Below are positions 9,815 through 30,508 of a stretch of 64,000 nucleotides of DNA, in pieces. Each line of letters starts with the position of its first letter. Position 1 is the stretch's first letter. The notes below the pieces were generated by a model. It had not been told where the DNA came from, did no database searches, and saw nothing but the letters and a program-made list of their open reading frames with translations. The DNA is from Escherichia phage vB_EcoM_JS09: sequence record NC_024124.2, one strand, 5' to 3'. A program made the translations under genes and the position numbers.

Positions 9815-10228
9815 ATGACTCGTATCAATTTAACACTTGTTTCTGAACTGGCCGACCAACATCTTATGGCTGAGTATCGTGAATTACCACGCGTATTTGG
9901 TGCAGTCCGTAAACATGTTCAAAACGGTAAACGTGTAAAGGATTTTAAAATCTCTCCAACATTTATCTTAGGCACAGGTCACGTAACATTCTTTTACGAC
10001 AAACTCGAATTTTTACGTTTACGCCAAATCGAGCTAATCGCTGAATGCTTGAAACGTGGTTTCAAAATCAAGGACACGACTGTCCAGGATATTTCCGACA
10101 TCCCTGCCGAATTTTGTAATAATTATGTCCCGTCCGAAGCGTCCATTGCGATAAGTCAAGCACGCTTAGATGAAAAAATTGCTCAACGTCCGACTTGGTA
10201 CAAATACTATGGTAAATCAATTTACTAA
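9815..10228 (+). CDS. denV: endonuclease V, pyrimidine-dimer DNA glycosylase
   Basis: [31 protein letters not shown]... about 90 percent identical to T4 endo V as recalled; GGAGGA upstream. Confidence 0.95.
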
Positions 10229-11058: not shown

Positions 11059-11115
11059 CAGTTTACTTTCTCCTAGAATTGTGATAGTATATTCATAATT
11101 ACTTGGATGGGTAAA

Positions 11116-11244
11116 ATGACTTATATTAATTTGACTTTAGTATCTAAATTTGCTGATCAACATTTAATCGCCGAATACTGTGAATTGCCACGTGTTTTTG
11201 GTATAATTCGTAAACACGTGGCAAAAATATTTACATTCAAATAA
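11116..11244 (+). pseudogene. truncated second copy of denV 5' end (42 codons)
   Basis: Translates [42 protein letters not shown], matching the denV N-terminus at 9815 and then stopping; has its own GTTTAC promoter at 11061. Confidence 0.6.
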
Positions 11245-11927: not shown

Positions 11928-12232
11928 TGACCACTATTGAAGTTTTTGAGTATTGTTATAACAGCCCAGTATGCAATAAAAGGGCTCTTGTAGAAAATTA
12001 CGAGATCTACCATTTTAAACCTAAACGATATTGTTTGACTAAAGGTCCGTTCGCAGGTCAGCAGGTTCTTTGTACTGCTCCTAATGCACGGTTGATGACT
12101 AGTATTCCGCATTTCAAAATGGAATTTATTGATGGGCCGTTTAAGGGATTAATCACTCAAAGTTTAATGGCGTTTAATTCCGTCCCATTTTTGATTAAAG
12201 AAAAAACTTGGATAAATTTATTTTCTAATTGA
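11924..12232 (+). CDS. hypothetical protein (102 aa)
   Basis: ORF track trimmed to ATGATG at 11924 (overlaps upstream stop). Confidence 0.5.
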   Translation: MMTTIEVFEYCYNSPVCNKRALVENYEIYHFKPKRYCLTKGPFAGQQVLCTAPNARLMTSIPHFKMEFIDGPFKGLITQSLMAFNSVPFLIKEKTWINLFSN

Positions 12233-12238
12233 GGTTAT

Positions 12239-12601
12239 ATGAAAGCATATCAAATTCTTGAAGGTGCGCATAAAGGCACTATTTATTTTGAAGACGGTAC
12301 TCAGGCCCGGATTATTGTCTCTAAGACTTTTAAAGAAGACGCTATTGTAGACCCGGAAATTTTCTACGGTTTGAATGCCCGTGAAATTGAAATTGAACAT
12401 CAACCTAAAGTTAAAATTGAAGGTGGTCAACACCTGAACGTTAACGTTCTGCGTCGTGAAACTCTGGAAGATGCAGTTAAGCATCCGGAAAAATATCCTC
12501 AGCTGACCATCCGTGTATCCGGTTATGCAGTTCGCTTTAACTCTCTGACTCCAGAACAGCAGCGCGACGTTATCGCTCGTACCTTTACTGAGAGTCTATA
12601 A
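12239..12601 (+). CDS. grcA: GrcA/YfiD-like autonomous glycyl radical cofactor
   Basis: C-terminus [63 protein letters not shown] carries the RVSGYAV glycyl-radical motif; C-terminal half uses CTG/CGT-rich host-like codons. Confidence 0.85.
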
Positions 12602-12825
12602 TGGCTAAATTGATTATAGAAGGGTCTGAAGATGTTTTAAAATGTTTTGCCGCCTGGTTTAGTTGCTCAGGCGAGCAATCATTCACTGAAGCATTTAGAA
12701 TGGGTGATATTACCGGAAACTATCCGACAACTGATATCACTGTACGTGGATATGGTATTAATGAGCCTATCCAATTGGTCGAATATGACCTTGCCACCGA
12801 TGAGGAAATTCCTTATGTCGATTGA
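12601..12825 (+). CDS. hypothetical protein (74 aa)
   Basis: ORF track; ATAATG overlap. Confidence 0.5.
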   Translation: MAKLIIEGSEDVLKCFAAWFSCSGEQSFTEAFRMGDITGNYPTTDITVRGYGINEPIQLVEYDLATDEEIPYVD

Positions 12826-13081
12826 AGATATTAAAGGTTACAAACCGCACACCGATGACAAAATCGGCAAAGTGAACGCTATTAAAGATGCCGAAGTCCG
12901 TCTTGGATTGATGTTTGATGCTCTGATTGAAGAAGCATATATCTTGAAAGAAAATGAAACAGAGCAACAAACCAAAGAAGATATGGATGCAGTGCAGGCT
13001 CTTAAGTACGCTAAGCAACATCTAAAAGAAGCCAGCATGTGGGCGTGTCGTGCAGTATTTCGACCTGAGGAAAAATACTAA
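12815..13081 (+). CDS. hypothetical protein (88 aa)
   Basis: ORF track frame 12647 trimmed to ATG at 12815; short overlap with upstream gene. Confidence 0.45.
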   Translation: MSIEDIKGYKPHTDDKIGKVNAIKDAEVRLGLMFDALIEEAYILKENETEQQTKEDMDAVQALKYAKQHLKEASMWACRAVFRPEEKY

Positions 13082-13296
13082 TGGCTTCTACTATTACTGG
13101 GTTATTGGACTTTCAAGAAAAGGTCAACAAAATTTGTAGTGAATACTTAAAGTATCTTGAAGAAGACCTTGAAGATTGTAAGGAAGAAGGCGAAGAAGAC
13201 TATGCTGACCAGCGCCGACGCCAAATCGAAGAGATGAGGCATTTCGCCGATATGGTATCTAAAGAATCTTGGGCTTTAACTCCATTTTATCAATAA
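13081..13296 (+). CDS. hypothetical acidic protein (71 aa)
   Basis: ORF track; TAATG overlap. Confidence 0.5.
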   Translation: MASTITGLLDFQEKVNKICSEYLKYLEEDLEDCKEEGEEDYADQRRRQIEEMRHFADMVSKESWALTPFYQ

Positions 13297-13300
13297 AGTA

Positions 13301-13329
13301 GTTTACTTCTCCTCTAGTTGTGTTACTAT
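13301..13329 (+). promoter_or_regulatory. T4-type early promoter with 14-bp inverted repeat
   Basis: GTTTAC (13301-13306), 17-nt spacer, TACTAT (13324-13329); TTCTCCTCTAGTTG (13307-13320) is the perfect reverse complement of CAACTAGAGGAGAA (13339-13352), which holds the SD of the next gene. Confidence 0.65.
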
Positions 13330-13357
13330 AGACCTTGTCAACTAGAGGAGAAACCAA

Positions 13358-13816
13358 ATGACTATCAATTCGGAAGTTTTTATCCGCCGTAATAAACTCC
13401 GTCGAATCTTTGAAACGGAGTTCCGCAAAATAAATGCCGGTATAAAAGATGCTGCAAAGTCTCTTGGACTACCAGGCTTTCATATCAAGTATTCTCAACA
13501 TCTCTTAGATCGTGCCATCCAGAGAGAAATAGATGAGAATTACGTTTTTGAATTATTTCATAAAGTAAAAAATCATGTTAAAGAAGTTGCAGAATTTTTA
13601 TCAATGCCGGCACGTCCAGATGTTGATGAAGATTTTGTCGAAGGTGTCGAATATCGCCCAGGCCGTTTAGAAATAACTGATGGAAATCTTTGGTTAGGAC
13701 TTACAGTTTGTCGCGAAAATCCAGCATTCAAAATGAAGACTCTTCAATGTAGAATGGCTATTATTAACAGTAAACGACTACCAGGAAAAGCTTCTAAAGC
13801 AGTGATTAAAATCTAG
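13358..13816 (+). CDS. regB: RegB-like endoribonuclease (152 aa)
   Basis: Size and position between denV and tk as in T4; sequence matches my recollection of RegB; GAGGAGAA upstream. Confidence 0.55.
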   Translation: MTINSEVFIRRNKLRRIFETEFRKINAGIKDAAKSLGLPGFHIKYSQHLLDRAIQREIDENYVFELFHKVKNHVKEVAEFLSMPARPDVDEDFVEGVEYRPGRLEITDGNLWLGLTVCRENPAFKMKTLQCRMAIINSKRLPGKASKAVIKI

Positions 13817-13824
13817 AGGTAAAC

Positions 13825-14367
13825 ATGAGAAAAGCACTACTCGCTGGTCTATTTGCTCTTTCGTTATCAGCACATAGCTCCGAGCATACTTTTAGTAATG
13901 TCCAACTCGATAACTTGAATTATGCTTATCAGTTTGGGGAACAGTTTTCTAAGGACGGAAAATTTAAAACGCATGAAAATATGCATAAGAAAGGACTTGG
14001 ATACATAATGGCCGCAATACTATGGCAGGAATCATCTGCTGGTATTAATCTTAAAGATAAGAAAGGTCACCATGCGTATGGAATGTTCCAAAACTATCTA
14101 CCAACAATGAGGGCAAGAATTAACCAGCTTGGTTATAATATGACTGATGCCCAAATTAAGAAAATGCTATCTAAGCGGTCTAATTCAACCAGATGGGCTT
14201 ATATCGAATTTTCTTATTGGTTAAATATACATAATGGGGATATAAGAAAAGCTATATCCTCATACAATGCGGGATGGAAGACAAGTGCTGGAAGTAAATA
14301 TGCTTCTGAAGTCCTAGAAAAGGCTAATTACCTTAAATCAAATAAACTACTGGAAATAAAAGAATGA
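13825..14367 (+). CDS. secreted lytic transglycosylase-like protein (SLT motifs)
   Basis: Signal peptide MRKALLAGLFALSLSAHS; ILWQESSAG, YGMFQNY and SSYNAGW resemble SLT domain motifs. Confidence 0.6.
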   Translation: MRKALLAGLFALSLSAHSSEHTFSNVQLDNLNYAYQFGEQFSKDGKFKTHENMHKKGLGYIMAAILWQESSAGINLKDKKGHHAYGMFQNYLPTMRARINQLGYNMTDAQIKKMLSKRSNSTRWAYIEFSYWLNIHNGDIRKAISSYNAGWKTSAGSKYASEVLEKANYLKSNKLLEIKE

Positions 14368-14711
14368 CCAAAGTGTTGGCTTTAATAGTTGGCTTGGTTT
14401 CATTTAACGCTCTTGCTAATACTACATATACTGATGTAACGGAGTATACAAACAGAACGGCGTCTGATTATTGTGGTAAAAGTCAAGAGTGTAAAGTAGA
14501 TTTTTCACAAAAATTGTTATATGCGTATAAAGACGGAGAAAAAGATGGGGCGTCTAGTAGGTTCAAGGCGTCTACCTTAATTAAAAGATACTATAAAAAA
14601 TGGCAAATATTAGAATGCTCGGTGGCGGAACCTAAAGATAAGGCAGCATGCAATTCTATGGTGGACCGTCTAGTTGACTCTTATAATAGAGGACTTGCAG
14701 CAAGTGATTAA
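14364..14711 (+). CDS. secreted Cys-containing protein (115 aa)
   Basis: Signal peptide MTKVLALIVGLVSFNALA; ATGA overlap. Confidence 0.55.
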   Translation: MTKVLALIVGLVSFNALANTTYTDVTEYTNRTASDYCGKSQECKVDFSQKLLYAYKDGEKDGASSRFKASTLIKRYYKKWQILECSVAEPKDKAACNSMVDRLVDSYNRGLAASD

Positions 14712-15171
14712 AAACTATATCAAGGGCGATATTGTCGCCCTGTTTTCTAAAGGTAATAATATTGCTCATGGGTGTAATTGTTTTCATACAATGGGCGCCG
14801 GTGTAGCAGGCCAATTAGCAAAGGCTTATCCAAAAATTTTAGAAGCCGATAAACTTCAAACCGAATTCGGAGACAAGTCTAAACTCGGGACTTATTCGGT
14901 TTATGAAAAATATTTTAAGACCCATAAAGCTTATTGCTTTAATCTTTATACGCAGTTTGAGCCGGGACCTAATTTTGAGTACTATGCTTTAATGAATTGT
15001 ATAATAGAATTAAATGAATTCGGAAAGAATAAGATAACAAAGCCTGTAATTTATATGCCAAGAATTGGTGCAGGTATCGGTGGCGGAAACTGGGATGTCA
15101 TCGAAGAGATTTTAGACACATATTCCACTAAACTAGAAATTGTGATTGTTGATTGGGAACCATTATTATGA
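14674..15171 (+). CDS. macro domain protein (ADP-ribose binding/hydrolase fold)
   Basis: NNIAHGCNCFHTMGAGVAGQLAKAYP fits the macro-domain Gly-rich signature; start overlaps upstream gene by 38 nt (only in-frame ATG). Confidence 0.65.
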   Translation: MTLIIEDLQQVIKNYIKGDIVALFSKGNNIAHGCNCFHTMGAGVAGQLAKAYPKILEADKLQTEFGDKSKLGTYSVYEKYFKTHKAYCFNLYTQFEPGPNFEYYALMNCIIELNEFGKNKITKPVIYMPRIGAGIGGGNWDVIEEILDTYSTKLEIVIVDWEPLL

Positions 15172-15380
15172 ATATACATTATCCACATCCATATGACCCA
15201 AAGAATAAGGCAGTAATTATTCGTCAATGGGAACGCATTTGTCGTACCAAATGTCCAATTAATAGTCCACACGATGTAGATAAAGACTACATCGGAACAT
15301 TCGTTGAATATACCTTTATTGATAAGAAAGGCCGTAAACAACATGTAGAAGAATATTGCTTAAAGGTGACATGGTTATGA
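15168..15380 (+). CDS. hypothetical protein (70 aa)
   Basis: ORF track frame (15153 is a TTG); ATG at 15168 overlaps macro-gene stop. Confidence 0.5.
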   Translation: MNIHYPHPYDPKNKAVIIRQWERICRTKCPINSPHDVDKDYIGTFVEYTFIDKKGRKQHVEEYCLKVTWL

Positions 15381-15583
15381 GTCAAACAAAAATTCTTACA
15401 GGTGCTAAATGCGAAAAATGCGAATGGCCTGTAGTTTTTGCTTTATGCAATGACGAAATGGCTTGTGATTTTGATTATTGGTGTTACTGTTCGAACAAAG
15501 GTTGTAGCAATCATAAAGGTGAAGGGTTTTACTCAGGATTTTACCCTTACCCGGATTTTGTTAAAGAAGGTGAACCTAAATGA
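15377..15583 (+). CDS. Cys-rich small protein (68 aa)
   Basis: ORF track trimmed to ATG at 15377; CEKCEW...CDFDYWCYCSNKGC suggests metal binding. Confidence 0.5.
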   Translation: MSQTKILTGAKCEKCEWPVVFALCNDEMACDFDYWCYCSNKGCSNHKGEGFYSGFYPYPDFVKEGEPK

Positions 15584-15762
15584 AATTAACTAAAGAAGAG
15601 AAAGCTAAACTGTTCGAACTTATCCATGACCTATTGGATGAGCAAGCAGCCACCAATGCGTACGATGAATATGCTCCTTTGACGGATGAAGAATATCAAA
15701 CATTGTTGGAATCATTTGACAGGAAAGAACAAGAACTCATTGACTACGTGAATTCACTATAA
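15580..15762 (+). CDS. hypothetical acidic protein (60 aa)
   Basis: ORF track; ATGA overlap. Confidence 0.5.
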   Translation: MKLTKEEKAKLFELIHDLLDEQAATNAYDEYAPLTDEEYQTLLESFDRKEQELIDYVNSL

Positions 15763-15771
15763 GGGACTCTT

Positions 15772-16353
15772 ATGGCTAGTTTAATTTTTACATATGCCGC
15801 TATGAACGCTGGTAAGTCTGCTTCATTACTTACTGCCGCACATAACTATAAAGAACGTGGCATGGGTGTATTAGTTCTTAAACCGGCTATTGATACTCGC
15901 GATTCAAAAGGTGAAATAGTCTCTCGTATTGGTATTCGTCAGGACGCCAATATAATTACAAAAGACATGGATATCTTTGAATTCTATAAATGGGCTGCAG
16001 CACAAAAGGATATTCATTGTGTATTTGTTGACGAAGCTCAATTCTTAACTACTGAAAAGGTGTATCAACTTAGTCGTATTGTTGACGTATACAATGTGCC
16101 GGTAATGGCATATGGACTACGAACAGATTTTAAAGGTAATCTATTTGAAGGTTCTCAAGCATTAATGGCTATTGCCGATAAGCTTGTTGAACTTAAAGGT
16201 GTCTGTCATTGTGGTAAAAAGGCCACAATGGTAGCTAGAGTCACGGAAGACGGACTTCCAATTACAGATGGCAGTCAAATTGAAATTGGTGATACCGATA
16301 GATATGTGTCATTATGCCGGAAGCATTGGAATGATTTGACAGGGTTGTTATAA
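15772..16353 (+). CDS. tk: thymidine kinase
   Basis: P-loop TYAAMNAGKSASLL, FVDEAQF and C-terminal Cys cluster; T4 tk-like. Confidence 0.9.
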   Translation: MASLIFTYAAMNAGKSASLLTAAHNYKERGMGVLVLKPAIDTRDSKGEIVSRIGIRQDANIITKDMDIFEFYKWAAAQKDIHCVFVDEAQFLTTEKVYQLSRIVDVYNVPVMAYGLRTDFKGNLFEGSQALMAIADKLVELKGVCHCGKKATMVARVTEDGLPITDGSQIEIGDTDRYVSLCRKHWNDLTGLL

Positions 16354-16380
16354 ATACTAATATCTAACCAAGAGGTATAT

Positions 16381-16593
16381 ATGCAGCAATTAAACGAAAG
16401 ACAACTTCGTAATCTTACTGTAACCCAATTGGATGAAATCCGAAGAGAATTAGGACATTCTATTTCTCATTTAAACGAGGATATCCGTCAAACTGGTTCT
16501 AAAGCTGATTATACACGCAAGCGCAAGCTGGAAAAATACCTCACAGATGTTAAGGCCGTCCAAAGGCGAAAAATAAATACTGGCCAAAATTAA
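16381..16593 (+). CDS. hypothetical protein (70 aa)
   Basis: ORF track; AAGAGG upstream. Confidence 0.5.
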
Positions 16594-16605
16594 CAGGAGG
16601 CCTAT

Positions 16606-16908
16606 ATGGCCTTAAGAGCGATAGCTGTCATGGCGATGCTGGGGTTTTTTGCAGCAACAACTCCTATCGTTGGTACTGCATATATCGACCCATATTTTGA
16701 TAACTTTATGGAATCAGGGATTAAAAACGTATATACTTTGTTTGAAATTCAAAATGTCGAGAATTCTGAAAAATTCTATAAGTATATGGCAAAGCATTAC
16801 AAAAATAGCCCCTGTGATGATGCATTTGAATGTCATGAACAAGGCATAAAAACTGCCAGACAATTTGCCGAGTTCATGAAAATAAAATTAGAGCCTACAT
16901 CTATCTAA
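16606..16908 (+). CDS. rI: lysis-inhibition protein RI-like (secreted, 100 aa)
   Basis: N-terminal MALRAIAVMAMLGFF signal-anchor and overall sequence match my recollection of T4 RI; AGGAGG upstream. Confidence 0.6.
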   Translation: MALRAIAVMAMLGFFAATTPIVGTAYIDPYFDNFMESGIKNVYTLFEIQNVENSEKFYKYMAKHYKNSPCDDAFECHEQGIKTARQFAEFMKIKLEPTSI

Positions 16909-16914
16909 TTTACT

Positions 16915-16943
16915 AGCCCCTTCCTTACGGTTGGGGCTTTTTT
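16915..16943 (+). terminator. intrinsic terminator (same family as 745)
   Basis: AGCCCC / GGGGCT stem followed by a T-run. Confidence 0.7.
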
Positions 16944-16953
16944 GCATTTAGCA

Positions 16954-16982
16954 GTTTACTTCTCCTCAGGTTGTGTTATAGT
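16954..16982 (+). promoter_or_regulatory. T4-type early promoter
   Basis: GTTTAC (16954-16959), 17-nt spacer, TATAGT (16977-16982) with upstream TG; TTCTCCTC complements the downstream GAGGAGAA SD. Confidence 0.6.
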
Positions 16983-17009
16983 AGTCCTTACTTACTAGAG
17001 GAGAACGTT

Positions 17010-17189
17010 ATGTCACGTAAAGAAAAAATTTCTAAGTTAATGTTTTTGATTGAAGAGTACGCTAATGCTGTATCTGATTGGGAAAATGCTCATGGTTGCG
17101 AAGATGGAGACATCGACATTAACAGAGCTATGAAAAAGATGACCGATGCCCACACCGAATTGCAAATGTATGTTAACGAGATTATGTGA
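17010..17189 (+). CDS. hypothetical protein (59 aa)
   Basis: ORF track frame (16971 is a TTG) trimmed to ATG at 17010 after GAGGAGAA. Confidence 0.5.
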   Translation: MSRKEKISKLMFLIEEYANAVSDWENAHGCEDGDIDINRAMKKMTDAHTELQMYVNEIM

Positions 17190-17196
17190 GGATATT

Positions 17197-17361
17197 ATGC
17201 TTTACGATTATACTGGAAAATCTGAAGACGGTGTACTTGAACTTTTACCTGAAAGCGCTGAAGATGATATGGTAGTGATGTTTTGTGTTGGTTGTCAATC
17301 AATGCGTGATGAAATTTTTAAACGTGAACCAAGAAACTGTTGGCACAGGAGCATGAGATGA
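17197..17361 (+). CDS. hypothetical protein (54 aa), paralog of 17453
   Basis: ORF track trimmed; begins MLYDYTGKSEDGVLELLPE. Confidence 0.5.
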   Translation: MLYDYTGKSEDGVLELLPESAEDDMVVMFCVGCQSMRDEIFKREPRNCWHRSMR

Positions 17362-17452
17362 TTTATTATCTTGAACCTTGGGCTTGGTTAACAATGGCTG
17401 TAGGACCTGTTTTAATTGGTTTATTCTTTTCATGGTTAGCGAGGAAACTGTA
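17358..17452 (+). CDS. possible hydrophobic micro-protein (31 aa)
   Basis: Not in ORF track; MIYYLEPWAWLTMAVGPVLIGLFFSWLARKL fills the gap and is start/stop coupled on both sides. Confidence 0.3.
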
Positions 17453-17668
17453 ATGTTATATGACCCAAGCGGCAATTTTGAAAATGGTGTGATTGTTCTG
17501 GAGCCTGAGCATCCAGTTGGTGACGTATACCGCCCAGTTGAAGTATGCGAATGTAATTTTGTTAAAGGTAATACTGGCGGAATTTCCATTGAGCAAGACG
17601 ATGATGTTATTTACCTGGATGCAAGCCAAGTAGAAGCTCTTTATAGCATTTTAAAACACAATCGGTAG
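17453..17668 (+). CDS. hypothetical protein (71 aa), paralog of 17197
   Basis: ORF track trimmed to ATG at 17453 after GAGGAAA; begins MLYDPSGNFENGVIVLEPE. Confidence 0.5.
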   Translation: MLYDPSGNFENGVIVLEPEHPVGDVYRPVEVCECNFVKGNTGGISIEQDDDVIYLDASQVEALYSILKHNR

Positions 17669-17725
17669 TTTACAACTTGGTAGGACTATGTTATAGTAGT
17701 CCTACCAAAACAAATGGAGAACAAA

Positions 17726-17836
17726 ATGAAACTTTTGCTTATCGTTTATGTTATAGTACAATACAATTATCCAATGTTTACTTATAACATGGTAAATGGC
17801 ATAGTGAATCTTATTGAAACGAGTATGGTAAAATGA
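17726..17836 (+). CDS. possible hydrophobic micro-protein (36 aa)
   Basis: Not in ORF track; GGAGAA upstream. Confidence 0.3.
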   Translation: MKLLLIVYVIVQYNYPMFTYNMVNGIVNLIETSMVK

Positions 17837-18012
17837 CACGTGAACAAGCTAATAAATTGATGGACCTTATCCATGACTTACGTGAAGCCGATTCAGATTT
17901 GAATAATGTAGCTTATCATGCGGTAAATGATAACGGAGACTTTTATGAAAATCAGGTTGACGCTTGCCAGAATGCTTTGGTGAATTTTGTTGAAACTTTA
18001 ATTGGTGAATAA
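17833..18012 (+). CDS. hypothetical protein (59 aa)
   Basis: Not in ORF track; ATGA overlap; ends at TAA immediately before the next gene. Confidence 0.45.
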   Translation: MTREQANKLMDLIHDLREADSDLNNVAYHAVNDNGDFYENQVDACQNALVNFVETLIGE

Positions 18013-18013
18013 T

Positions 18014-18544
18014 ATGAAAACCGTAATTGAAACAACCGAGTTGTTTGGTGATTTATGTATCGAAAAACGTGGGTATGTGTATGTTCTGACACAAGAAGAT
18101 GATGCTGCTACTATTCTTCCTATGGAACTGGACAAGATTTTGAAACTCAATCCACCAGGCCATGCATCTGTAATTAACATTGATGAAGACCTTCAAGTTC
18201 GTTTTTATCACGGACTTTATAGTGGGGTTAATATCGAAACTGAAGACGAATGTTTTTCTATTAATAATTGGAAAACATTCGTCACTAAAGTGAAAGAATT
18301 CATGGAATCTGAAACAGCCAAAAAGGCCAAACTTCAATGGGCTAAATGTCGTAATGCTTTTATTACAAATCAGGACCGCCCTGACTATACAACAGTCCTA
18401 GGCGTTAATCCTTCTTATGAAGATGGTGATGTCGTAGTTATTCGTCAAATTGACGACCTTCGTCAACATATCGTTACATTAGACAAAGATGAAGCAGTTG
18501 CTCTTAAAGCTTATCTTGATTCTATTATCCCGACTTTGAAATAA
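18014..18544 (+). CDS. hypothetical protein (176 aa)
   Basis: ORF track trimmed to ATG at 18014. Confidence 0.6.
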   Translation: MKTVIETTELFGDLCIEKRGYVYVLTQEDDAATILPMELDKILKLNPPGHASVINIDEDLQVRFYHGLYSGVNIETEDECFSINNWKTFVTKVKEFMESETAKKAKLQWAKCRNAFITNQDRPDYTTVLGVNPSYEDGDVVVIRQIDDLRQHIVTLDKDEAVALKAYLDSIIPTLK

Positions 18545-18553
18545 GGAATTATT

Positions 18554-19027
18554 ATGATTATCAATGAAAACTCTTGGCACTTTAAAATTTATGCCATGTT
18601 CAATAGTACATGGAATCGTCCGAAAACGTTGTGTGCTTATTTTTGGAAAACGTTTATTCCGGTATTAGCTGTTTCAATTGTTGGATTTGCAACTTTAGCA
18701 GGTGCCGCAATCATTGGCCAAGAAATTTTAACTAAGTTCTTTGTCTTTAGTAGTTTATGGACATTAGTTCCTGCTTCAATTGGTATAGGCATTTTAACAA
18801 TATCAGTAATGGTTCTTATTGCTGTCGGGTTGGTAATTGGTCCGTCTTGGTTGTTAGACAAATATAACGACAGAAAATATTATAAAGAAATTGAGCTCAT
18901 TGCGCAAAACCAAGAACGAATTAAAAATGGACTTGAGCCTATTGAACGTAAGAAATCATTAATAGGCGAATACCTTAAAGCTCGTAAAGAAAAAGTCTGT
19001 CCTACTCTTGAATATAAGGCTAAATGA
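18554..19027 (+). CDS. membrane protein (157 aa)
   Basis: ORF track; AAGGAA upstream; several hydrophobic helices. Confidence 0.6.
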   Translation: MIINENSWHFKIYAMFNSTWNRPKTLCAYFWKTFIPVLAVSIVGFATLAGAAIIGQEILTKFFVFSSLWTLVPASIGIGILTISVMVLIAVGLVIGPSWLLDKYNDRKYYKEIELIAQNQERIKNGLEPIERKKSLIGEYLKARKEKVCPTLEYKAK

Positions 19028-20013
19028 TGAAAACGATTGTTAAGGCTTACTTTGGTAGCCACCTTTATGGAACGTCTACTCCTGAATCTGACGTCGATTT
19101 TAAAGAAATTTATGTCCCTCATGCTCGTGATATCTTGACCGGTAACGTTAAAGAACATATGAGCAAGAACACGAATAACACATCTTCTAAGAACACAAAA
19201 GACGACGTGGACCATGAGTTGTATAGTCTCAAATATTTCTTTAAACTAGCTGCGGATGGTGAAACCGTCGCATTAGACATGCTTCACACTCCACAAAGTC
19301 TAGTAGTTAAATCTGATTTGCCTGATGTATGGAAGTATATTCAAGATAACAGGTCTCGTTTCTATACCACTAACATGAAATCTTATTTAGGGTATGTCCG
19401 TAAGCAAGCTTCCAAATACGGTGTCAAGGGTTCTCGACTGGCTGTTCTTCGACAAGCCCTTAAACGTTCTAATGAATGGGGACAATACTTTGATAATGGT
19501 GCAGTAATTCGTTTATCACATATGAAGAATGTTCTGCCTGTAGGTGAATTTGCTTCGTGGGTTGAAACCGAAAACGAGAAAACAGGTAAGCAAACATTCT
19601 ATAATCTGTTAGACCGTAAATTCCAAGATACGTTAACCAATAAAGAGTTCAATGCCATCCTGGTTAAACTGGAAGAGAACTATGGTGAACGTGCTCGTAA
19701 GGCAGAAGCTAACGAAGGTATTGACTGGAAAGCATTGAGTCATGCATGCCGTGGTGGACTTCAATTATTGGAAATTTACAAAACCGGTGACTTGGTTTAC
19801 CCACTTCAGGATGCTCCATTTATTCTCGATGTTAAGCTTGGTAAACATACGTTTAAAACTGTACAAGAATTCCTGGAAGACATTGTTGACCAGGTAGAAC
19901 AAGCATCAGAACAAGCCGCTAAGAACGGTATGCAACAAAAAGTAGATATGAGTTTCTGGGATGATTTCCTTGAGCAAGTCTATCTCGAAAATCATAATTC
20001 TTACTATAAATAA
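19024..20013 (+). CDS. nucleotidyltransferase-fold protein (329 aa)
   Basis: N-terminal AYFGSHLYGTSTPESDVDFKEIY fits the Pol-beta NTase motif; ATGA overlap. Confidence 0.6.
   Translation: MMKTIVKAYFGSHLYGTSTPESDVDFKEIYVPHARDILTGNVKEHMSKNTNNTSSKNTKDDVDHELYSLKYFFKLAADGETVALDMLHTPQSLVVKSDLPDVWKYIQDNRSRFYTTNMKSYLGYVRKQASKYGVKGSRLAVLRQALKRSNEWGQYFDNGAVIRLSHMKNVLPVGEFASWVETENEKTGKQTFYNLLDRKFQDTLTNKEFNAILVKLEENYGERARKAEANEGIDWKALSHACRGGLQLLEIYKTGDLVYPLQDAPFILDVKLGKHTFKTVQEFLEDIVDQVEQASEQAAKNGMQQKVDMSFWDDFLEQVYLENHNSYYK
20005..20012 (+). promoter_or_regulatory. T4-type late promoter box TATAAATA
   Basis: Exact TATAAATA about 33 nt upstream of the 20045 start. Confidence 0.45.
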
Positions 20014-20044
20014 GTAGATAAATAACTCTTAACTTGAGGTAAAT

Positions 20045-20311
20045 ATGAAAAAATTAGTAATTGGTTTATTCGCAGTAATGATGGCATTCTCTGTTGGTGC
20101 TACCACAGGTACAGGAGCCGGTGGTAACCAGTCTTCTGGGCCTTCCAACGGTTCGGTAAATGCATCACATTCTCAGGGTATTGAGAATATCAAATCAAGC
20201 TATATTAATAGCACGGCCGGACAAGCAACTGAAGCATGGTCAAAGGGACGAGTAGTTACTCGCTCCGTATTCTGTGATATGCCTAATTATGTTGCTAAGT
20301 GCGATAAGTAA
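20045..20311 (+). CDS. secreted Gly/Ser-rich protein (88 aa)
   Basis: Signal peptide MKKLVIGLFAVMMAFSVGA; GAGG upstream. Confidence 0.6.
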   Translation: MKKLVIGLFAVMMAFSVGATTGTGAGGNQSSGPSNGSVNASHSQGIENIKSSYINSTAGQATEAWSKGRVVTRSVFCDMPNYVAKCDK

Positions 20312-20315
20312 ATGC

Positions 20316-20335
20316 GGGGACCTTCGGGTCCCTTT
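20316..20335 (+). terminator. intrinsic terminator with TTCG loop
   Basis: GGGGACC-TTCG-GGTCCC followed by TTT. Confidence 0.65.
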
Positions 20336-20430
20336 AGGGGGTTAAAATATTTTTAAAAAAGTAGTGTACATGCTTTTAGGATATGTTATTATAGACCTAT
20401 CGAAACGAAATGAGTAAATTGGAGAATAAA

Positions 20431-21411
20431 ATGTTCAACGTTCAAATCAAAAAAGGTATCTATCGTAATAACGAAATCTCTGGTTCTTATGTTGCCACAA
20501 AGACCTGGTTCCCGGCAAAGCTTAATCCTGAATGTTCCCACTTAGGTGATGGTAAAATTTTCGTTATGATTGATGGTTCTGAACGTGGAGTATGGGTCTT
20601 CAAATCAGACATCGTAATGGAAGGAGTTGAGACGTCACCAGTTGCAGTTGTTGAAAGCACTGAAGATATGAAAACTCGTATCAACAAACGCTTTAAAGTA
20701 ATGAACATGATGACGAATGGCATTATCGATGGCAAAATTCGTTCACTCATTATTTCAGGTGCAGCTGGTATTGGTAAGACGTATTCTCTGGATAAAGCAC
20801 TTAATAATGCTAATGATAATGGTTTCATCAAATACAAAAGCATTAATGGTAAAATCTCCGGTATTGGCCTTTACGAACAACTTTGGCTCAACCGTGATGC
20901 AGACAGCGTTCTCTTAATCGACGACGTTGACGTATTCTCAGATATGGACATCTTGAACCTTCTTAAAGCAGCATTAGATACTGGAGATAAACGCAAAGTT
21001 TGCTGGAGCACTGCGTCATCTTATCTCGATGATAAGGGTATTGATAAAGAATTTGAGTTTGAAGGTACTATCGTTTTCATTACAAACGTTGATATCGATA
21101 AAGAGTTAGAACGCGGTTCGAAACTTGCCCCACACCTTCAAGCTTTAGTATCTCGTTCAGTGTATCTCGACCTCGGAGTACACTCTAATGAAGAGATTAT
21201 GGTTCGAGTTGAAGATGTAATATTATCTACTGACATGATGCAGAAACGTGGTCTGACTGATGCAGAAACGTATAAAGCATTGTCCTGGATGAAGGCTAAC
21301 GTATCTCGTCTTCGCAATGTATCATTACGTACGGCTCTTTATGTAGCAGATTTTATTTCAACTGATAAAGATGGTTGGGAGGAAATCTCTGAAGTAACTT
21401 TACTGAAATAA
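20431..21411 (+). CDS. AAA-type ATPase (326 aa)
   Basis: Walker A LIISGAAGIGKTYS and Walker B VLLIDDVDVF; start trimmed to ATG at 20431 after GGAGAA. Confidence 0.7.
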   Translation: MFNVQIKKGIYRNNEISGSYVATKTWFPAKLNPECSHLGDGKIFVMIDGSERGVWVFKSDIVMEGVETSPVAVVESTEDMKTRINKRFKVMNMMTNGIIDGKIRSLIISGAAGIGKTYSLDKALNNANDNGFIKYKSINGKISGIGLYEQLWLNRDADSVLLIDDVDVFSDMDILNLLKAALDTGDKRKVCWSTASSYLDDKGIDKEFEFEGTIVFITNVDIDKELERGSKLAPHLQALVSRSVYLDLGVHSNEEIMVRVEDVILSTDMMQKRGLTDAETYKALSWMKANVSRLRNVSLRTALYVADFISTDKDGWEEISEVTLLK

Positions 21412-21549
21412 TCTTATAGGAAGTTCTGAGGTAACAAAAGCCATAAAGATGAATAATCATATGGCTTACCTCAAAGAAGGACACCAGGAACCTACTGAGG
21501 GCATAGAAATATTTAAAAATAATGATGTACAAATCAAAGAGGATATGTT

Positions 21550-21837
21550 ATGGATTTTATGCAAAAAATTAAAGCCGCAGTCGAACTCTATGCTCATCGT
21601 ATGGTTAGTTCTACAATGCAATATAGCGAGGAGGTTCGCCAGGACTCTTCCTTGAAAGGAAAAACTAAAGCCTTAATTACCTTAGATTGTTTGCAAAAGA
21701 ATGCCATAGAGATGCTCCAGTACGACAAGGGTGTATATAAGAAAGAACAGGAAGAGAAACTTAAATCTGAAAAATTACAAAAAATCCCGAAGTCTGTTTG
21801 GTTCAGTGGAAAAAATACCGAAAAAAGTTTCTTTTAG
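21550..21837 (+). CDS. hypothetical protein (95 aa)
   Basis: ORF track; AAAGAGGA upstream. Confidence 0.5.
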   Translation: MDFMQKIKAAVELYAHRMVSSTMQYSEEVRQDSSLKGKTKALITLDCLQKNAIEMLQYDKGVYKKEQEEKLKSEKLQKIPKSVWFSGKNTEKSFF

Positions 21838-21839
21838 TT

Positions 21840-21868
21840 GTTTACAAGGTCTATGATTATGTTATTAT
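21840..21868 (+). promoter_or_regulatory. T4-type early promoter with inverted repeat
   Basis: GTTTAC (21840-21845), 17-nt spacer, TATTAT (21863-21868); AGGTCTAT / ATAGACCT arms. Confidence 0.6.
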
Positions 21869-21895
21869 AGACCTATCAACTACTGGAGGTAAAAC

Positions 21896-22423
21896 ATGAA
21901 CGCTAAAGATATTTTCAACCTGGTAAATTATAACGACGGTAAATTTAAATCTGAAGCACAAAGCAAGTTCTTTAATGACGTTGCTTATGGTAACGAGATT
22001 ACCGTAGACGGAGGTCAGATTTTCAAATCTCGCTGGAATTGGATTGCTATCATCGATTCAGTTGGAATTGTGGAAGTCTACAAAAACACTAACAAAAAAC
22101 GTACATTATTCTGGTCTCGTGAAACTAACGAGCAGTACAAAAAGGATAAAGCATCTCGTTTATCCAAAGTAACCCAGGAAGATATCGAGTTTATCAAGAA
22201 AGATATCGAGATGTACGAAAATTTAATCGCTGAAGACCAGGCAGTACTCGATAAGTTTGATGAAATTAAAGCTTCTCGTGAAATCCCTGACTTCATGAAA
22301 GAAACAGTAAACGAACGATACGCTCTCACTTCAGAACGTATTGCAAACTATACAAAACAGAAAGCAGAACGTATTAGTACTCTTCGGAAATTTGAAGAAC
22401 GTTTAAAGACGGTTCACGCATAA
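21896..22423 (+). CDS. hypothetical protein (175 aa)
   Basis: ORF track; GGAGG upstream. Confidence 0.6.
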   Translation: MNAKDIFNLVNYNDGKFKSEAQSKFFNDVAYGNEITVDGGQIFKSRWNWIAIIDSVGIVEVYKNTNKKRTLFWSRETNEQYKKDKASRLSKVTQEDIEFIKKDIEMYENLIAEDQAVLDKFDEIKASREIPDFMKETVNERYALTSERIANYTKQKAERISTLRKFEERLKTVHA

Positions 22424-22485
22424 ACGCTTTACCCAAGGACGGGTTATAATGGTTTTGAGTTCCAATTCAATCTGAGGAAATAGTT

Positions 22486-23481
22486 ATGAGCATTACATCT
22501 GATGCGGTAAAACATGAAATTAACGGTTTATGTGCTTCACAGATTAAAGTGTGGTTTAAAGACCATAATGATCGCAGAGCACTTAATTATGAGCAAATTG
22601 CTATCCAAGTTCATCAATTATTGACTAGTAAATTTGATTTTCATATGCCGTCTGAAATCTATACTAATCTACCGCGAGCGCTTATTAAAGCGTGTAAAGG
22701 TTACGGAAAATCAATGGCCGATGGAATCTTCAGCGCGCTGAATAAACTTAACGTTCTGTCGATGATTAACTCTAATAACATCCTGCGTAATCTAGGACGT
22801 ACTGATTTGTTCGGTCGTGAACAGTGTAAAATGCCTTTGAAATGGATTGTTGCTCATCTTAACGAGAACCAAACACGTTTTATGGCCGTATCAGCACGCT
22901 TACAAATGGGCCTAGATCGTCAGATGAACTTTAAAACTCATCCACGTTATTCAGGTTCAACAGACTTTTATAAATGTGAGCTTCAAAAGGTTGCAGGTAA
23001 AACTGTCTTAGTAGTTCGTGTAACGTTTGAAGGACGACGTCAAGGATATTTTGACCTAATCGGCTCTGGTCTTAAACATTGTGGATTTATTGACGAAGTT
23101 GTTATAAAGCGAGACGGCATTGGATATCGTATTGGATATGTTTGTACTCTTAAAGAAGAGATTTCAGGTCCAGCACCAGGACTAAAAGACGTTAGATATA
23201 AAGACGAGCTCGTTGAAGAAATAAAAGAAGTTGAATATGATATCAACCAAGAAGATGCTCTTAAAGACCTTATTGATGAACTAAACCAAGACGTTATTCC
23301 GGTTCAAAAATTTGAATCAAAACATGCTGAGCAAATCAAATACTTTGAAGCTTTGATTAACGAACTTAATGTAACTATTCAACAGACTGATGATGAAATC
23401 TCACGATTAGCAGGCTTAAACGGTAAAAATAAAACAGAACGAGCTAATCTTATTCAAGTAGTAAAACTTCTTAAGGAATGA
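22486..23481 (+). CDS. hypothetical protein with C-terminal coiled coil (331 aa)
   Basis: ORF track; GAGGAAA upstream. Confidence 0.65.
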   Translation: MSITSDAVKHEINGLCASQIKVWFKDHNDRRALNYEQIAIQVHQLLTSKFDFHMPSEIYTNLPRALIKACKGYGKSMADGIFSALNKLNVLSMINSNNILRNLGRTDLFGREQCKMPLKWIVAHLNENQTRFMAVSARLQMGLDRQMNFKTHPRYSGSTDFYKCELQKVAGKTVLVVRVTFEGRRQGYFDLIGSGLKHCGFIDEVVIKRDGIGYRIGYVCTLKEEISGPAPGLKDVRYKDELVEEIKEVEYDINQEDALKDLIDELNQDVIPVQKFESKHAEQIKYFEALINELNVTIQQTDDEISRLAGLNGKNKTERANLIQVVKLLKE

Positions 23482-23536
23482 TGTACAACCAAGGATGGTT
23501 GGAGTATAATAAATTTTTCAACATGAGGAATATAAA

Positions 23537-24472: not shown

Positions 24473-24534
24473 AATAGTTTACAACCAAGGATGGTTGGAG
24501 TATAATGAATCTATCTTAACGAGAGGAAAATATT

Positions 24535-25485: not shown

Positions 25486-25790
25486 TGAAACTACGTCTTT
25501 TAGAGGATATTGATATGAGCACTAATCATGGCTTGGTTAAGTTTATTGACGATAGTTCAAAGATTGAATTTGTTCAGCGAGATAAAATCCACGGTGAAGA
25601 AGAGTTCGTTCCTCCGGCATGGAACGAAATAATGAAAATGGTTGAACGACGTGAAAATGCTGCCAAATCGGCAGCAAAACATCCATGTCCGGAATGTGGA
25701 ACTATCCAAGTCCAACTGGTTAACTGGACCACTGATAACTTGAAATTGAAATGCCGTAAATGCTTCCACAAATTTGAGAGAACATTATAA
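25485..25790 (+). CDS. zinc-ribbon-like protein (101 aa)
   Basis: ORF track; CPECG ... CRKC pair. Confidence 0.5.
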   Translation: MKLRLLEDIDMSTNHGLVKFIDDSSKIEFVQRDKIHGEEEFVPPAWNEIMKMVERRENAAKSAAKHPCPECGTIQVQLVNWTTDNLKLKCRKCFHKFERTL

Positions 25791-27111: not shown

Positions 27112-27113
27112 TA

Positions 27114-27753: not shown

Positions 27754-28227
27754 ATGTTATTATCTGGCAAATTATACAAAGAAGAAAAACAAAAATTTTA
27801 TGATGCACAGAATGGTAAGTGTCCTATTTGCCACCGTGAATTAGACCCTGATGTTCAAGGTAACCATCTTGACCACGACCATGAATTAAACGGGCCAAAA
27901 GCCGGTAGAGTTCGTGGATTACTCTGTAATCTGTGCAACGCAGCAGAAGGCCAAATGAAGCATAAGTTCAACCGTTCCGGTCTTAAAGGACGTGATGTCG
28001 ACTACCTCGAATGGCTTGAAGCTCTTCTTGCTTATTTGAAACAAGATTATTCTGATAATAATATCCATCCTAATTTTGTTCCAGACAAAACTAAAGAGTT
28101 CTCAAGACTAGGTAAAGAGGAAATGATGGCTGAGATGCTTCAAAGAGGATTTGAATATAATGAATCTGATACCAAAACACAATTAATAGCTTCATTCAAA
28201 AAGCAGCTTAGAAAGAGTTTAAAATGA
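27754..28227 (+). CDS. 49: endonuclease VII, Holliday junction resolvase
   Basis: MLLSGKLYKEEKQKFYDAQNGKCPIC...HLDHDHELNGPKAGRVRGLLCNLCN near-identical to T4 gp49 as recalled. Confidence 0.95.
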   Translation: MLLSGKLYKEEKQKFYDAQNGKCPICHRELDPDVQGNHLDHDHELNGPKAGRVRGLLCNLCNAAEGQMKHKFNRSGLKGRDVDYLEWLEALLAYLKQDYSDNNIHPNFVPDKTKEFSRLGKEEMMAEMLQRGFEYNESDTKTQLIASFKKQLRKSLK

Positions 28228-30041
28228 AAATTGAAAAAGAAATTGAAGGATTAATTCATAAAACTAATAAAGATCTTTTGAACGAGAATGCTAATAAAGA
28301 TTCTCGTGTTTTTCCAACTCAACGGGACCTTATGGCTGGTATTGTGTCTAAGCACATTGCCAAAAATATGGTCCCGTCTTTTATTATGAAAGCACATGAA
28401 AGCGGAATTATCCATTTCCATGATATTGATTATTCCCCTGCTCTTCCATTTACTAATTGCTGTTTAGTAGATTTAAAAGGAATGCTTGAAAACGGGTTTA
28501 AGCTAGGTAATGCTCAAATTGAAACGCCTAAATCGATTGGTGTTGCTACTGCAATTATGGCACAAATTACCGCACAGGTTGCTTCACATCAGTACGGCGG
28601 AACGACTTTTGCTAATGTAGATAAAGTACTTTCTCCTTATGTTAAACGCACCTATGCAAAACATATTGAGGATGCAGAAAAATGGCAAATCGCTGATGCG
28701 TTGAATTATGCCCAATCTAAAACAGAAAAAGACGTATACGATGCATTTCAAGCTTATGAGTATGAAGTAAATACTCTTTTTAGCTCAAACGGTCAAACGC
28801 CTTTTGTAACAATTACATTTGGTACTGGAACTGACTGGACTGAACGAATTATTCAGAAAGCAATTCTTAAAAACCGCATTAAAGGCCTTGGTCGTGATGG
28901 AATAACTCCTATTTTCCCTAAACTTGTTATGTTCATTGAAGAGGGTGTCAATCTTTATAAAGACGACCCGAACTATGATATTAAGCAGCTTGCTCTAGAG
29001 TGTGCAAGCAAAAGAATGTATCCTGATATTATTTCAGTTAAGAACAATAAAGCTATCACTGGTTCATCTATTCCTGTTTCTCCAATGGGTTGTCGTAGTT
29101 TCTTGAGTGTATGGAAAGATTCGACTGGAAATGAAATTCTTGATGGACGTAATAATCTTGGTGTTGTAACACTGAATCTTCCTCGTATTGCGTTAGATTC
29201 TTATATTGGAACACAATTCAATGAACAGAAATTTGTTGAGCTATTTAATGAACGAATGGATCTGTGTTTTGAAGCCTTGATGTGTAGAATTAGTTCTTTA
29301 AAGGGTGTTAAAGCAACTGTTGCTCCTATTCTTTACCAAGAAGGTGCATTCGGGGTTCGTCTTAAACCTGATGACGATATAATTGAGTTATTTAAAAACG
29401 GTAGAAGTTCAGTGTCCTTAGGATACATTGGTATTCACGAATTGAATATTCTTGTCGGTCGTGATATTGGACAAGAAATTTTAACTAAAATGAATGCTCA
29501 TCTTAAGCAGTGGACTGAAAGAACCGGTTTTGCTTTTAGCTTGTATTCTACTCCTGCTGAAAACCTGTGCTATCGCTTCTGTAAACTTGATACCGAGAAA
29601 TATGGAAGTGTAAAAGATGTTACTGATAAAGGCTGGTACACTAATAGTTTCCATGTTTCAGTAGAAGAAAATATCACTCCGTTTGAAAAGATTTCTCGCG
29701 AAGCCCCATATCATTTCATTGCGACTGGCGGACATATTTCTTATGTTGAACTTCCTGATATGAAAAATAACCTAAAAGGTCTTGAGGCTGTATGGGATTA
29801 TGCTGCACAACATTTAGATTATTTTGGTGTTAATATGCCAGTAGATAAATGTTTTACATGTGGAAGTACTCATGAAATGACTCCTACTGAAACCGGATTT
29901 GTTTGTTCTATTTGTGGAGAAACTGACCCTAAAAAGATGAACACCATAAGAAGAACATGCGGTTATCTTGGAAATCCTAACGAACGCGGATTTAATCTCG
30001 GCAAAAATAAAGAAATCATGCATAGGGTTAAACACCAATGA
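28224..30041 (+). CDS. nrdD: anaerobic (class III) ribonucleotide reductase
   Basis: 605 aa with C-terminal glycyl-radical motif RRTCGYLGNP and Cys-rich zinc site; single uninterrupted ORF. Confidence 0.95.
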   Translation: MKIEKEIEGLIHKTNKDLLNENANKDSRVFPTQRDLMAGIVSKHIAKNMVPSFIMKAHESGIIHFHDIDYSPALPFTNCCLVDLKGMLENGFKLGNAQIETPKSIGVATAIMAQITAQVASHQYGGTTFANVDKVLSPYVKRTYAKHIEDAEKWQIADALNYAQSKTEKDVYDAFQAYEYEVNTLFSSNGQTPFVTITFGTGTDWTERIIQKAILKNRIKGLGRDGITPIFPKLVMFIEEGVNLYKDDPNYDIKQLALECASKRMYPDIISVKNNKAITGSSIPVSPMGCRSFLSVWKDSTGNEILDGRNNLGVVTLNLPRIALDSYIGTQFNEQKFVELFNERMDLCFEALMCRISSLKGVKATVAPILYQEGAFGVRLKPDDDIIELFKNGRSSVSLGYIGIHELNILVGRDIGQEILTKMNAHLKQWTERTGFAFSLYSTPAENLCYRFCKLDTEKYGSVKDVTDKGWYTNSFHVSVEENITPFEKISREAPYHFIATGGHISYVELPDMKNNLKGLEAVWDYAAQHLDYFGVNMPVDKCFTCGSTHEMTPTETGFVCSICGETDPKKMNTIRRTCGYLGNPNERGFNLGKNKEIMHRVKHQ

Positions 30042-30508
30042 ATTATGATAGATTTTATCCTTGCGATTTTGTGAATGGCCCTGGTTGCAGGGTCGTTCTT
30101 TTCGTTACAGGTTGTTTGCATAAATGCGAAGGGTGTTATAATAAATCAACATGGAACGCTAGAAATGGTATTCCATTCACGGGTGAAACACTAGAGCAAT
30201 TAATTGAATGTTTGAATAATGATTATATAGAAGGATTAACTATAACTGGAGGAGACCCTCTCTATCCCGATAACAGAGATGTTGTTCATTGCATTGCTCA
30301 AACAGTAAAAAATCTTTATCCCAATAAAAGCATTTGGTTGTGGACAGGATATAAGTTTGAAGATATTAAACAACTAGAAATGCTTAAATATGTTGATGTT
30401 ATTATTGATGGGAAGTATGAGAAAAATCTTCCGACTAAAAAGATGTGGCGAGGATCAGATAATCAGCGACTTTGGTCAAATACCGATGGGGTGTGGAAAC
30501 ATGATTAA
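30038..30508 (+). CDS. nrdG: anaerobic RNR activating enzyme (radical SAM)
   Basis: GCLHKCEGCYN radical-SAM Cys motif; ATGA overlap with nrdD. Confidence 0.9.
   Translation: MNYDRFYPCDFVNGPGCRVVLFVTGCLHKCEGCYNKSTWNARNGIPFTGETLEQLIECLNNDYIEGLTITGGDPLYPDNRDVVHCIAQTVKNLYPNKSIWLWTGYKFEDIKQLEMLKYVDVIIDGKYEKNLPTKKMWRGSDNQRLWSNTDGVWKHD

Follow-up and report, generated by a model that had tools for sequence, protein, structure and literature searches.

Does a short open reading frame between denV and regB in a T4-like phage genome represent a phage gene, a host gene or a mosaic of the two, and, if it is a mosaic, how and how recently was the host part acquired? The frame lies in the window (the whole 64-kb stretch of DNA that was analyzed), whose source is a T4-like Mosigvirus. 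A first-pass annotation of this DNA had read the frame as a GrcA-like glycyl radical cofactor gene, part of which was taken from the host fairly recently. Our results showed that the gene is the ortholog of T4 vs.6 and that its 3' half carries DNA nearly identical to E. coli grcA. The questions of where this segment came from and why it stays so close to the host gene are taken up below.

Genomic context of the gene

The 363-nt gene was 99.7% identical to its counterpart in Escherichia phage AV110 and was matched at the megablast level by 785 phage records. The gene order of the region (e, denV, vs.8/vs.7/vs.6/vs.5-like, regB, vs.1, vs, tk, rI) was that of T4. The Shine-Dalgarno sequence of vs.6 overlapped the TGA stop codon (12230-12232) of the upstream vs.7-like ORF, and via the overlapping stop and start codons vs.6 is probably translationally coupled to the downstream vs.5-like ORF (Table 1). 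Promoter and terminator scans around vs.6 stayed at chance level, and no MotA-box motif was found directly upstream of the gene, the nearest copy on the + strand being at 9346. In the whole window, the MotA-box-like motif WWTGCTTYA occurred 27 times against 10.1 expected, a count reached by 0 of 100 shuffles, and this excess is consistent with middle promoters of the T4 type.

Two features of the surrounding DNA were also observed. A truncated second 5' end of denV, 35 codons long, was present at 11116-11220 inside the ORF at 11107-11244, with 80% amino acid and 73% nucleotide identity to the intact denV located 1.3 kb upstream (9815-10228). This relic lay in a stretch that is unannotated in AV110, just 5' of the vs.8-like gene, which is the site of denV in T4, and it suggests the insertion or duplication of a block comprising denV and three small ORFs, with the relic left behind. 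In addition, the start of nrdD was about 1.2 kb farther from vs.6 than collinearity with AV110 predicts, which points to extra DNA in the window somewhere within 12600-28200.

Table 1. Features of the vs.6 locus and of the anaerobic ribonucleotide reductase genes, in positions of the window
Feature	Position	Strand	Remarks
Shine-Dalgarno sequence GAGG	12231..12234	+	4 nt 5' of the vs.6 ATG; direct reading of the sequence
vs.6/Y06I ortholog, GrcA-like autonomous glycyl radical cofactor, 120 aa	12239..12601	+	ATG start, TAA stop
Phage-type N-terminal half, codons 1-60, diverged GrcA N-domain	12239..12418	+	~46% nt identity to E. coli grcA
Putative host-derived tract, glycyl radical domain	12417..12591	+	175 nt, 2 mismatches (12499, 12553) to E. 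coli grcA
Predicted radical-bearing Gly95 codon, in RVSGYAV	12521..12523	+	Alignment to E. coli GrcA and PDB 6OWR
3' end with phage-type wobble bases, GAG AGT CTA	12592..12598	+	As in Cronobacter phage leB and Klebsiella phage RCIP0006; 3' edge of the host tract
vs.5-like ORF, 74 aa	12601..12825	+	ATG overlaps the vs.6 TAA (TAATG); downstream sequence of T4 homologous
nrdD, anaerobic class III ribonucleotide reductase	28224..30041	+	Pfam NRDD 8e-171, Gly_radical 2e-25
nrdG, radical-SAM activase of NrdD	30038..30508	+	Pfam Fer4_12 7.7e-48, Radical_SAM 5e-7

Identity of the protein

The frame proved to be a real ORF of the kind first proposed, with a Pfam Gly_radical match of 2e-18 over residues 60-101, and the claimed likeness of its C-terminal 60 residues to GrcA was exact, since residues 61-120 equaled residues 68-127 of E. 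coli GrcA at 60 of 60 positions. The gene is the ortholog of T4 vs.6 (Y06I), and both gene and function are already known. The window protein was 93% identical to the T4 protein (NP_049730) at equal length and matched phrog_1209, the orthologous group of T4 vs.6, over its full length of 1-120 (9.1e-63); NP_049730, encoded in the denV-to-regB interval of T4, is annotated as "autonomous glycyl radical cofactor GrcA". The NCBIfam model TIGR04365 "spare_glycyl" was matched at 5.8e-47, with residues 18-120 on profile positions 23-126 of 126. The score of 159.1 bits fell just short of the curated equivalog cutoff of 170 because the N-terminal half is diverged; the cutoff was set for bacterial GrcA. 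The top solved structure was E. coli GrcA (PDB 6OWR, 2e-42), and with 120 residues and its own Shine-Dalgarno sequence and stop codon the protein fell within the size range of GrcA/YfiD proteins (TIGR04365, IPR011140; ~14 kDa, 120-127 aa). The model of pyruvate formate-lyase proper (TIGR01255) was matched by residues 55-120 only, at positions 679-744, with 89.6 bits against a cutoff of 994. As the likeness to PflB is confined to the last ~65 residues, the label "pyruvate formate-lyase" in AV110 and many other phage records is a misnomer. Gly95 of the phage protein aligned with Gly102 of the 127-residue E. coli GrcA, and the radical role of the glycine in RVSGYAV is established for the GrcA/glycyl radical family. 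Constraint on this domain was strong, with 50 invariant columns across 10 diverse phages.

The N-terminal half had been described as phage-like. This was correct insofar as it tracked phage taxonomy, its nucleotide identity falling from 88% with T4 through 74% with Jiaodavirus, 73% with Karamvirus and 59% with Pseudotevenvirus to 40-46% with host genes, but it was not an unrelated phage module. The profile of the phage N-terminal halves aligned end to end with that of the host GrcA N-terminal halves (hhalign Prob 94.6%, E 6.6e-8, 31% identity), which identified a diverged GrcA N-domain, and the phage N-terminal half matched the corresponding part of TIGR04365 at E=0.054. A vs.6 gene was present in 6 of 6 early T4-like genomes (Nolan et al. 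2006, PMC1524935), and a vs.6/grcA-like gene was found in 1,590 phage records. Together with the GrcA-type N-terminal half, this distribution indicates that phages have long carried vs.6 as a copy of grcA, of which only the 3' half is recent. The picture that would have spoken against a recent acquisition, an ancient T4-family gene with uniform phage codon usage, was thus accurate in one respect, the gene being old and widely conserved in the T4 family, but uniformity held neither for its codons nor for its DNA.

Genes resembling grcA were also observed outside the T4 family, in T5-like Demerecviridae of E. coli and Salmonella, in Vibrio phage KIT04 and in an Erwinia jumbo phage, and in the jumbo Salmonella phage 7t3 such a gene adjoined an nrdG-like gene. 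These genes had N-terminal parts of their own and carried no recent E. coli-type tract.

A host-identical DNA tract in the 3' half

When the window was compared by megablast with 5,426 complete E. coli genomes, the sole match was 12417-12609, and in each genome the matching sequence was grcA. The remaining 50 kb, in which nrdD, nrdG, tk, the DNA polymerase gene and further genes with homologs in the host are located, had no megablast match to these genomes. The comparison with enterobacterial grcA that had been proposed placed a sharp edge at codon 60/61: codons 61-120 were identical to E. coli grcA at 55 of 60 codons and 175 of 180 nt, whereas identity upstream was ~46%. The corresponding tract of T4 shared 57 of 59 codons with E. 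coli grcA and had one non-synonymous difference, and that of Tequatrovirus OES_C-3 shared 179 of 180 nt and was the freshest E. coli-type tract seen. The vs.6 gene of OES_C-3 (229-585) encodes 118 residues, with a deletion of 2 codons in the N-terminal half. Exact runs shared with host genes measured 80-173 nt in the converted copies and 9-20 nt in the unconverted ones.

Other T4-like phages in which these 60 residues were unchanged or nearly so differed from E. coli grcA at 26-38 mostly synonymous sites. Over the 180 nt, the differences numbered 29 in Cronobacter phage leB (0 amino acid changes), 33 in the E. coli phage RB43, 38 in CC31, 47 in RB49 and 45-52 in T5-like phages; among E. coli phages of these other genera (RB43, RB49 and T5-like), no recent tract was found. 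The dS values, calculated with the Nei-Gojobori method for codons 61-117, were 0.048 between E. coli grcA and the window and 0 for both T4 and OES_C-3, as compared with 0.60 between the host genes of E. coli and K. pneumoniae and 1.2 to saturation for the unconverted phages (RB43, leB, CC31, RB49, T5-like). DNA identity and dS together confirmed what the first-pass annotation had observed and supported its interpretation as a GrcA-type spare part containing recent host DNA, with the recently acquired part now assigned to the 175 nt of the tract.

The two halves of the gene also differed in apparent age. Between the window and T4, dS was 0.49 in the N-terminal half and 0.048 in the tract, with synonymous changes at 11 of 40 and 2 of 56 sites, respectively (Fisher p=0.0014), so that the tract is either far younger than the split of Tequatrovirus and Mosigvirus or has been homogenised since. 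The C-terminal part placed the window next to E. coli (97%) and Jiaodavirus next to K. pneumoniae (93-94%), while the N-terminal part followed phage taxonomy. The gene thus consists of segments with incompatible relationships and an identifiable host donor, which is the mosaic pattern of host-phage recombination of the psbA type.

The host grcA DNA used for these comparisons was that of E. coli and of the genera with the LLDAVEH variant described below, and "E. coli" as a donor includes bacteria with near-identical grcA, such as Shigella. Phages of Salmonella, Citrobacter, Enterobacter, Cronobacter, Yersinia, Aeromonas and Vibrio were judged against E. coli and Klebsiella-type hosts and by composition only. 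In the Karamvirus and Aeromonas phages the GC3 of the tract was 0.28-0.37, which argues against recent tracts from GC-rich hosts.

Codon usage and composition

The first-pass annotation had based its case on codons, describing the C-terminal half as rich in CTG, CGT and CGC. The CTG part of this description was significant, with 5 of 6 Leu codons in the C-terminal half against 11.4% in the window's remaining ORFs (binomial p=1e-4). The CGT and CGC part was not, with 6 of 6 Arg codons against a background of 67% (p=0.09); CGT is the preferred Arg codon of the phage itself (57% of Arg codons) and does not discriminate. The two profiles that had been suggested along the gene were hardly informative. 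GC3 rose weakly from 0.27 in the N-terminal half to 0.38 in the C-terminal half, and the general codon-usage score of the C-terminal half lay at the 40th percentile of 630 background windows. Neither result stands out, since T4 and the highly expressed genes of E. coli have many of their preferred codons in common, and E. coli grcA itself uses major codons ending in T or A and has a GC3 of 0.43. A clear GC3 step was seen in the Klebsiella phages only, from 0.23-0.27 in the N-terminal half to 0.60-0.63 in the tract, K. pneumoniae grcA having a GC3 of 0.67.

A second host donor and the spread of the tracts

The radical domain of the Klebsiella phages contained two residue changes, L77 and E81 (the LLDAVEH variant). 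A scan of one genome per bacterial species showed that LLDAVEH is the native GrcA sequence of Klebsiella, Raoultella, Kosakonia, Kluyvera and their relatives. At the DNA level, codons 61-95 of Jiaodavirus Kp122 were 100% identical to K. pneumoniae ATCC 13883, from which E. coli differs at 14 sites, and of codons 61-112 in phage KPV15 all but one (51 of 52) were those of K. pneumoniae grcA. Since the Klebsiella Jiaodaviruses hold K. pneumoniae-specific DNA in the same segment in which the window and T4 hold E. coli DNA, the patch has taken up host DNA in at least two independent events, from E. coli and from K. pneumoniae. In KPV15, whose tract had its best match in K. pneumoniae grcA, the N-terminal half of vs.6 (224-586) was out of frame and only a C-terminal CDS of 51 residues was annotated, which represents either a pseudogene or a sequencing error.

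At least 95% identity to the last 185 nt of E. coli grcA was found in 486 phage records, and 138 records of Klebsiella or Raoultella phages were 90-97% identical to nt 199/202-374 of K. pneumoniae grcA. In a sample of 80 uncultivated viral contigs, recent tracts were of two types only, that of Tequatrovirus/Mosigvirus, with 2-6 differences from E. coli, and that of Jiaodavirus, with 10 from K. pneumoniae.

Among the bacterial records, those labelled Vagococcus sp. WN89Y and Salmonella enterica strain s1 carried grcA of the Kosakonia/Klebsiella type, and these assemblies are probably mislabelled or contaminated. In Klebsiella sp. WOUb02, grcA was located on a 275-kb "plasmid". Full-length PFL genes in Actinobacillus MAGs ended in a GrcA-like C-terminus (LLDAVEH...), indicating that the tails of PflB and GrcA are not cleanly separated in Pasteurellaceae.

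Origin of the tract

The reading that best accounts for these observations, and which we hold with considerable confidence from the sequence comparisons, is that the gene is the vs.6 ortholog, a PFL spare part, whose 3' 175 nt were recently overwritten by host grcA, with an independent overwriting in the Klebsiella phages. The most likely route suggested by the sequence patterns would be homologous recombination between phage DNA and fragments of the host chromosome during infection. The 5' limit of the tract is codon 60/61, the end of DNA homology, and its 3' limit lies immediately ahead of the stop codon. The 5' junction, AAA ATT/GTT|GAA GGY, was common to all converted phages and coincided with the limit of phage-host DNA alignability, whereas the 3' edge fell within the last few codons and varied between phages. 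In the Klebsiella phages the same replacement would have occurred independently, with K. pneumoniae grcA as the donor.

A broader proposal, which we regard as evenly balanced, is that enterobacterial T4-like phages repeatedly overwrite the half encoding the radical domain with the grcA DNA of their current host, in a self-reinforcing "homology trap". Protein constraint would keep enough DNA identity for recombination, conversion would restore perfect identity, and the spare part would stay matched to the PFL of the host. A converted copy would be a much better substrate for the next conversion, giving a positive feedback. The recurrent donors would be E. coli for Tequatrovirus and Mosigvirus and K. 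pneumoniae for Jiaodavirus, in addition to older, decayed events in other genera.

The number of events in each lineage is the point at which the main alternative arises. The E. coli phages may have undergone a single conversion that then spread by phage-phage recombination between Tequatrovirus and Mosigvirus, with one event per host lineage, and we consider this account unlikely but worth serious weight. T-even phages recombine freely in co-infection, and Tequatroviruses isolated on Salmonella, Yersinia or Citrobacter also carried the E. coli-type tract, showing that the tract does not simply track the isolation host. The same 5' junction was present in all E. coli-type tracts as well, but this position is forced by the end of homology and is uninformative about the number of events. 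The 3' edges, by contrast, differed: OES_C-3 was host-type to the stop codon except for the wobble base of codon 118, T4 had AGT TTG, and the window had GAG AGT CTA. Within Jiaodavirus, phages with N-terminal halves 96-99% identical had different tract edges and donor alleles; the tract of Nispero was two codons longer at the 3' end and showed other donor-allele differences. Phage PKO111 was 96-97% identical to Kp122 and Nispero in the N-terminal half but only 92% in the tract, and between Kp122 and PKO111 dS was higher in the tract (0.42) than in the N-terminal half (0.24), which indicates tracts of different age or donor within nearly identical phages.

A much weaker case can be made for one ancient capture of grcA followed by codon selection, for translation efficiency or mRNA structure, that kept the 3' half host-like. 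The extreme constraint on the protein noted above and the strong codon bias of grcA, a highly expressed host gene, are in line with such selection. Against it, leB encodes the domain unchanged with 29 nucleotide differences, the dS of unconverted copies, the E. coli phages RB43 and RB49 included, ranged from 1.2 to saturation, the window and T4 also shared the non-optimal codons of E. coli (GTA, CAA, AAG, GCA), and the Jiaodaviruses matched the K. pneumoniae-specific synonymous states at 14 of 14 sites in codons 61-95. We therefore regard codon selection as very improbable.

Still less probable is a transfer in the opposite direction, in which the 3' halves of E. coli and Klebsiella grcA came from phage genes, although two-way intragenic exchange has been proposed for cyanophage psbA (PMC1484495). 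The host genes were evenly diverged along their length (E. coli and K. pneumoniae grcA 85% identical in the N-terminal part and 88% in the C-terminal part), host GC3 (0.43 and 0.67) followed the host genome while the tract raised GC3 over that of the phage N-terminal half, and a single allele family occupied the chromosomal grcA locus in all 5,426 E. coli genomes. The direction of transfer is thus from host to phage. Mis-assembly of host reads into phage genomes has a negligible probability, since hundreds of genomes sequenced independently of one another, those of the T4 reference and the RB phages among them, had the same in-frame junction, and phage-type sequence resumed inside the gene at the 3' end.

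Function in infection

The radical-SAM activase of PFL activates both E. coli YfiD and T4 Y06I, and the two restore O2-cleaved PFL, according to Wagner et al. 2001 on the account given in PMC8683613, where these two proteins, studied by Knappe and coworkers, are described as the only validated spare-part proteins. By orthology with the T4 protein, the host activase PflA would place the glycyl radical on Gly95. When O2 cleaves host PFL at its radical glycine, the small protein would dock on the truncated enzyme and supply a new radical domain. The benefit might be that, with host protein synthesis shut off, output of acetyl-CoA, ATP and formate continues under microaerobic conditions. Formate would in turn serve as the reductant of class III ribonucleotide reductases, for example the NrdD of the phage.

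The NrdD subtype of E. coli and T4 uses formate. T4 NrdD has been grouped with the E. coli enzyme (PMC4493059), and formate can directly reduce the active sites of ribonucleotide reductases (PMC5704485). Both nrdD and nrdG, to which the first-pass annotation had pointed, were present in the window, and the suggestion that the phage invests in anaerobic glycyl-radical metabolism is plausible, as is the inferred link between vs.6 and nrdD/nrdG.

The presence of NrdD and NrdG in the same genome also admits another role, in which the protein is a spare part for the phage NrdD, or a decoy that titrates the PflA activase, rather than a repair factor for PFL. Nolan et al. 2006 (PMC1524935) guessed at a role in nucleotide metabolism, and the N-terminal half is far removed from host GrcA, at 31% identity. 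We find this role improbable, as the radical domain is identical at 60 of 60 residues to the PFL-specific spare part of the host and 100% host-type in each host lineage, the radical loop of NrdD differs in sequence (RRTCGYLG), and T4 Y06I restored cleaved PFL in vitro (Wagner et al. 2001, cited in PMC8683613). The host-identical patch may confer an advantage, or it may reflect neutral recombination.

Significance

In the searchable literature, we found no description of host-identical, host-specific tracts in vs.6, and an earlier remark on the DNA identity is possible. The gene is an ordinary known one, and the evolutionary signature carried by its DNA is possibly unreported. The tracts suggest that strictly lytic T-even phages, though they degrade host DNA, take up short stretches of the host chromosome by homology, repeatedly and in a host-specific manner. 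If the proposal of recurrent, self-reinforcing conversion is true, vs.6 would provide a clean and datable case of recurrent recombination from a chromosomal gene to a virulent phage. The series from fresh tracts (0-2 differences) through intermediate (PKO111) to decayed ones (RB43, CC31) would form a natural time series for the decay of acquired DNA. In practical terms, a host-identical patch of 175 nt could mislead tools for host prediction or contamination screening.

Comparison with known systems

The closest relative of the window gene, T4 Vs.6/Y06I (NP_049730; GRCA_BPT4), has the same 120 residues in length, the same position between vs.7-like and vs.5-like ORFs, the same mosaic and the same 5' junction. 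The two proteins differ at 8 amino acids, 7 in the N-terminal half and 1 at residue 73, where T4 has His and both the window and the host have Arg. In the DNA, the tract of the window deviates from E. coli at 2 synonymous sites and that of T4 at none, and the window and T4 do not have the same last three codons.

E. coli GrcA (YfiD) likewise consists of an N-domain followed by a C-terminal glycyl radical domain, with the last 60 residues identical, and presumably shares with the phage protein both the activase, PflA, and the target, O2-cleaved PflB. With 120 residues against 127, the phage protein is the shorter by 7, identity over its first 60 residues is only ~31%, and its gene lies in a phage operon, whereas the host gene is under anaerobic and acid-stress control. 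Compared with PflB (PDB 1H16, 2PFL), residues 57-120 of the phage protein align to residues 696-759 (E 3e-26), the very segment for which the spare part substitutes, but the phage protein has neither the catalytic barrel nor Cys418/Cys419.

For the pattern of exchange, cyanophage psbA/psbD is the closest precedent of intragenic recombination between host and phage (Sullivan 2006, PMC1484495). In both systems a host-derived metabolic gene of T4-like phages has a patchy composition and exchanges segments with host alleles. The vs.6 case differs in that its donor species can be named, its edges can be placed with codon precision and its tract hardly deviates from the donor sequence. Zeidner, in 2005, reportedly also found intragenic recombination between host and phage in psbA/psbD of cyanophages. 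In vs.6, moreover, there are two independent cases with different enterobacterial hosts, and exchange is restricted to the domain with DNA homology.
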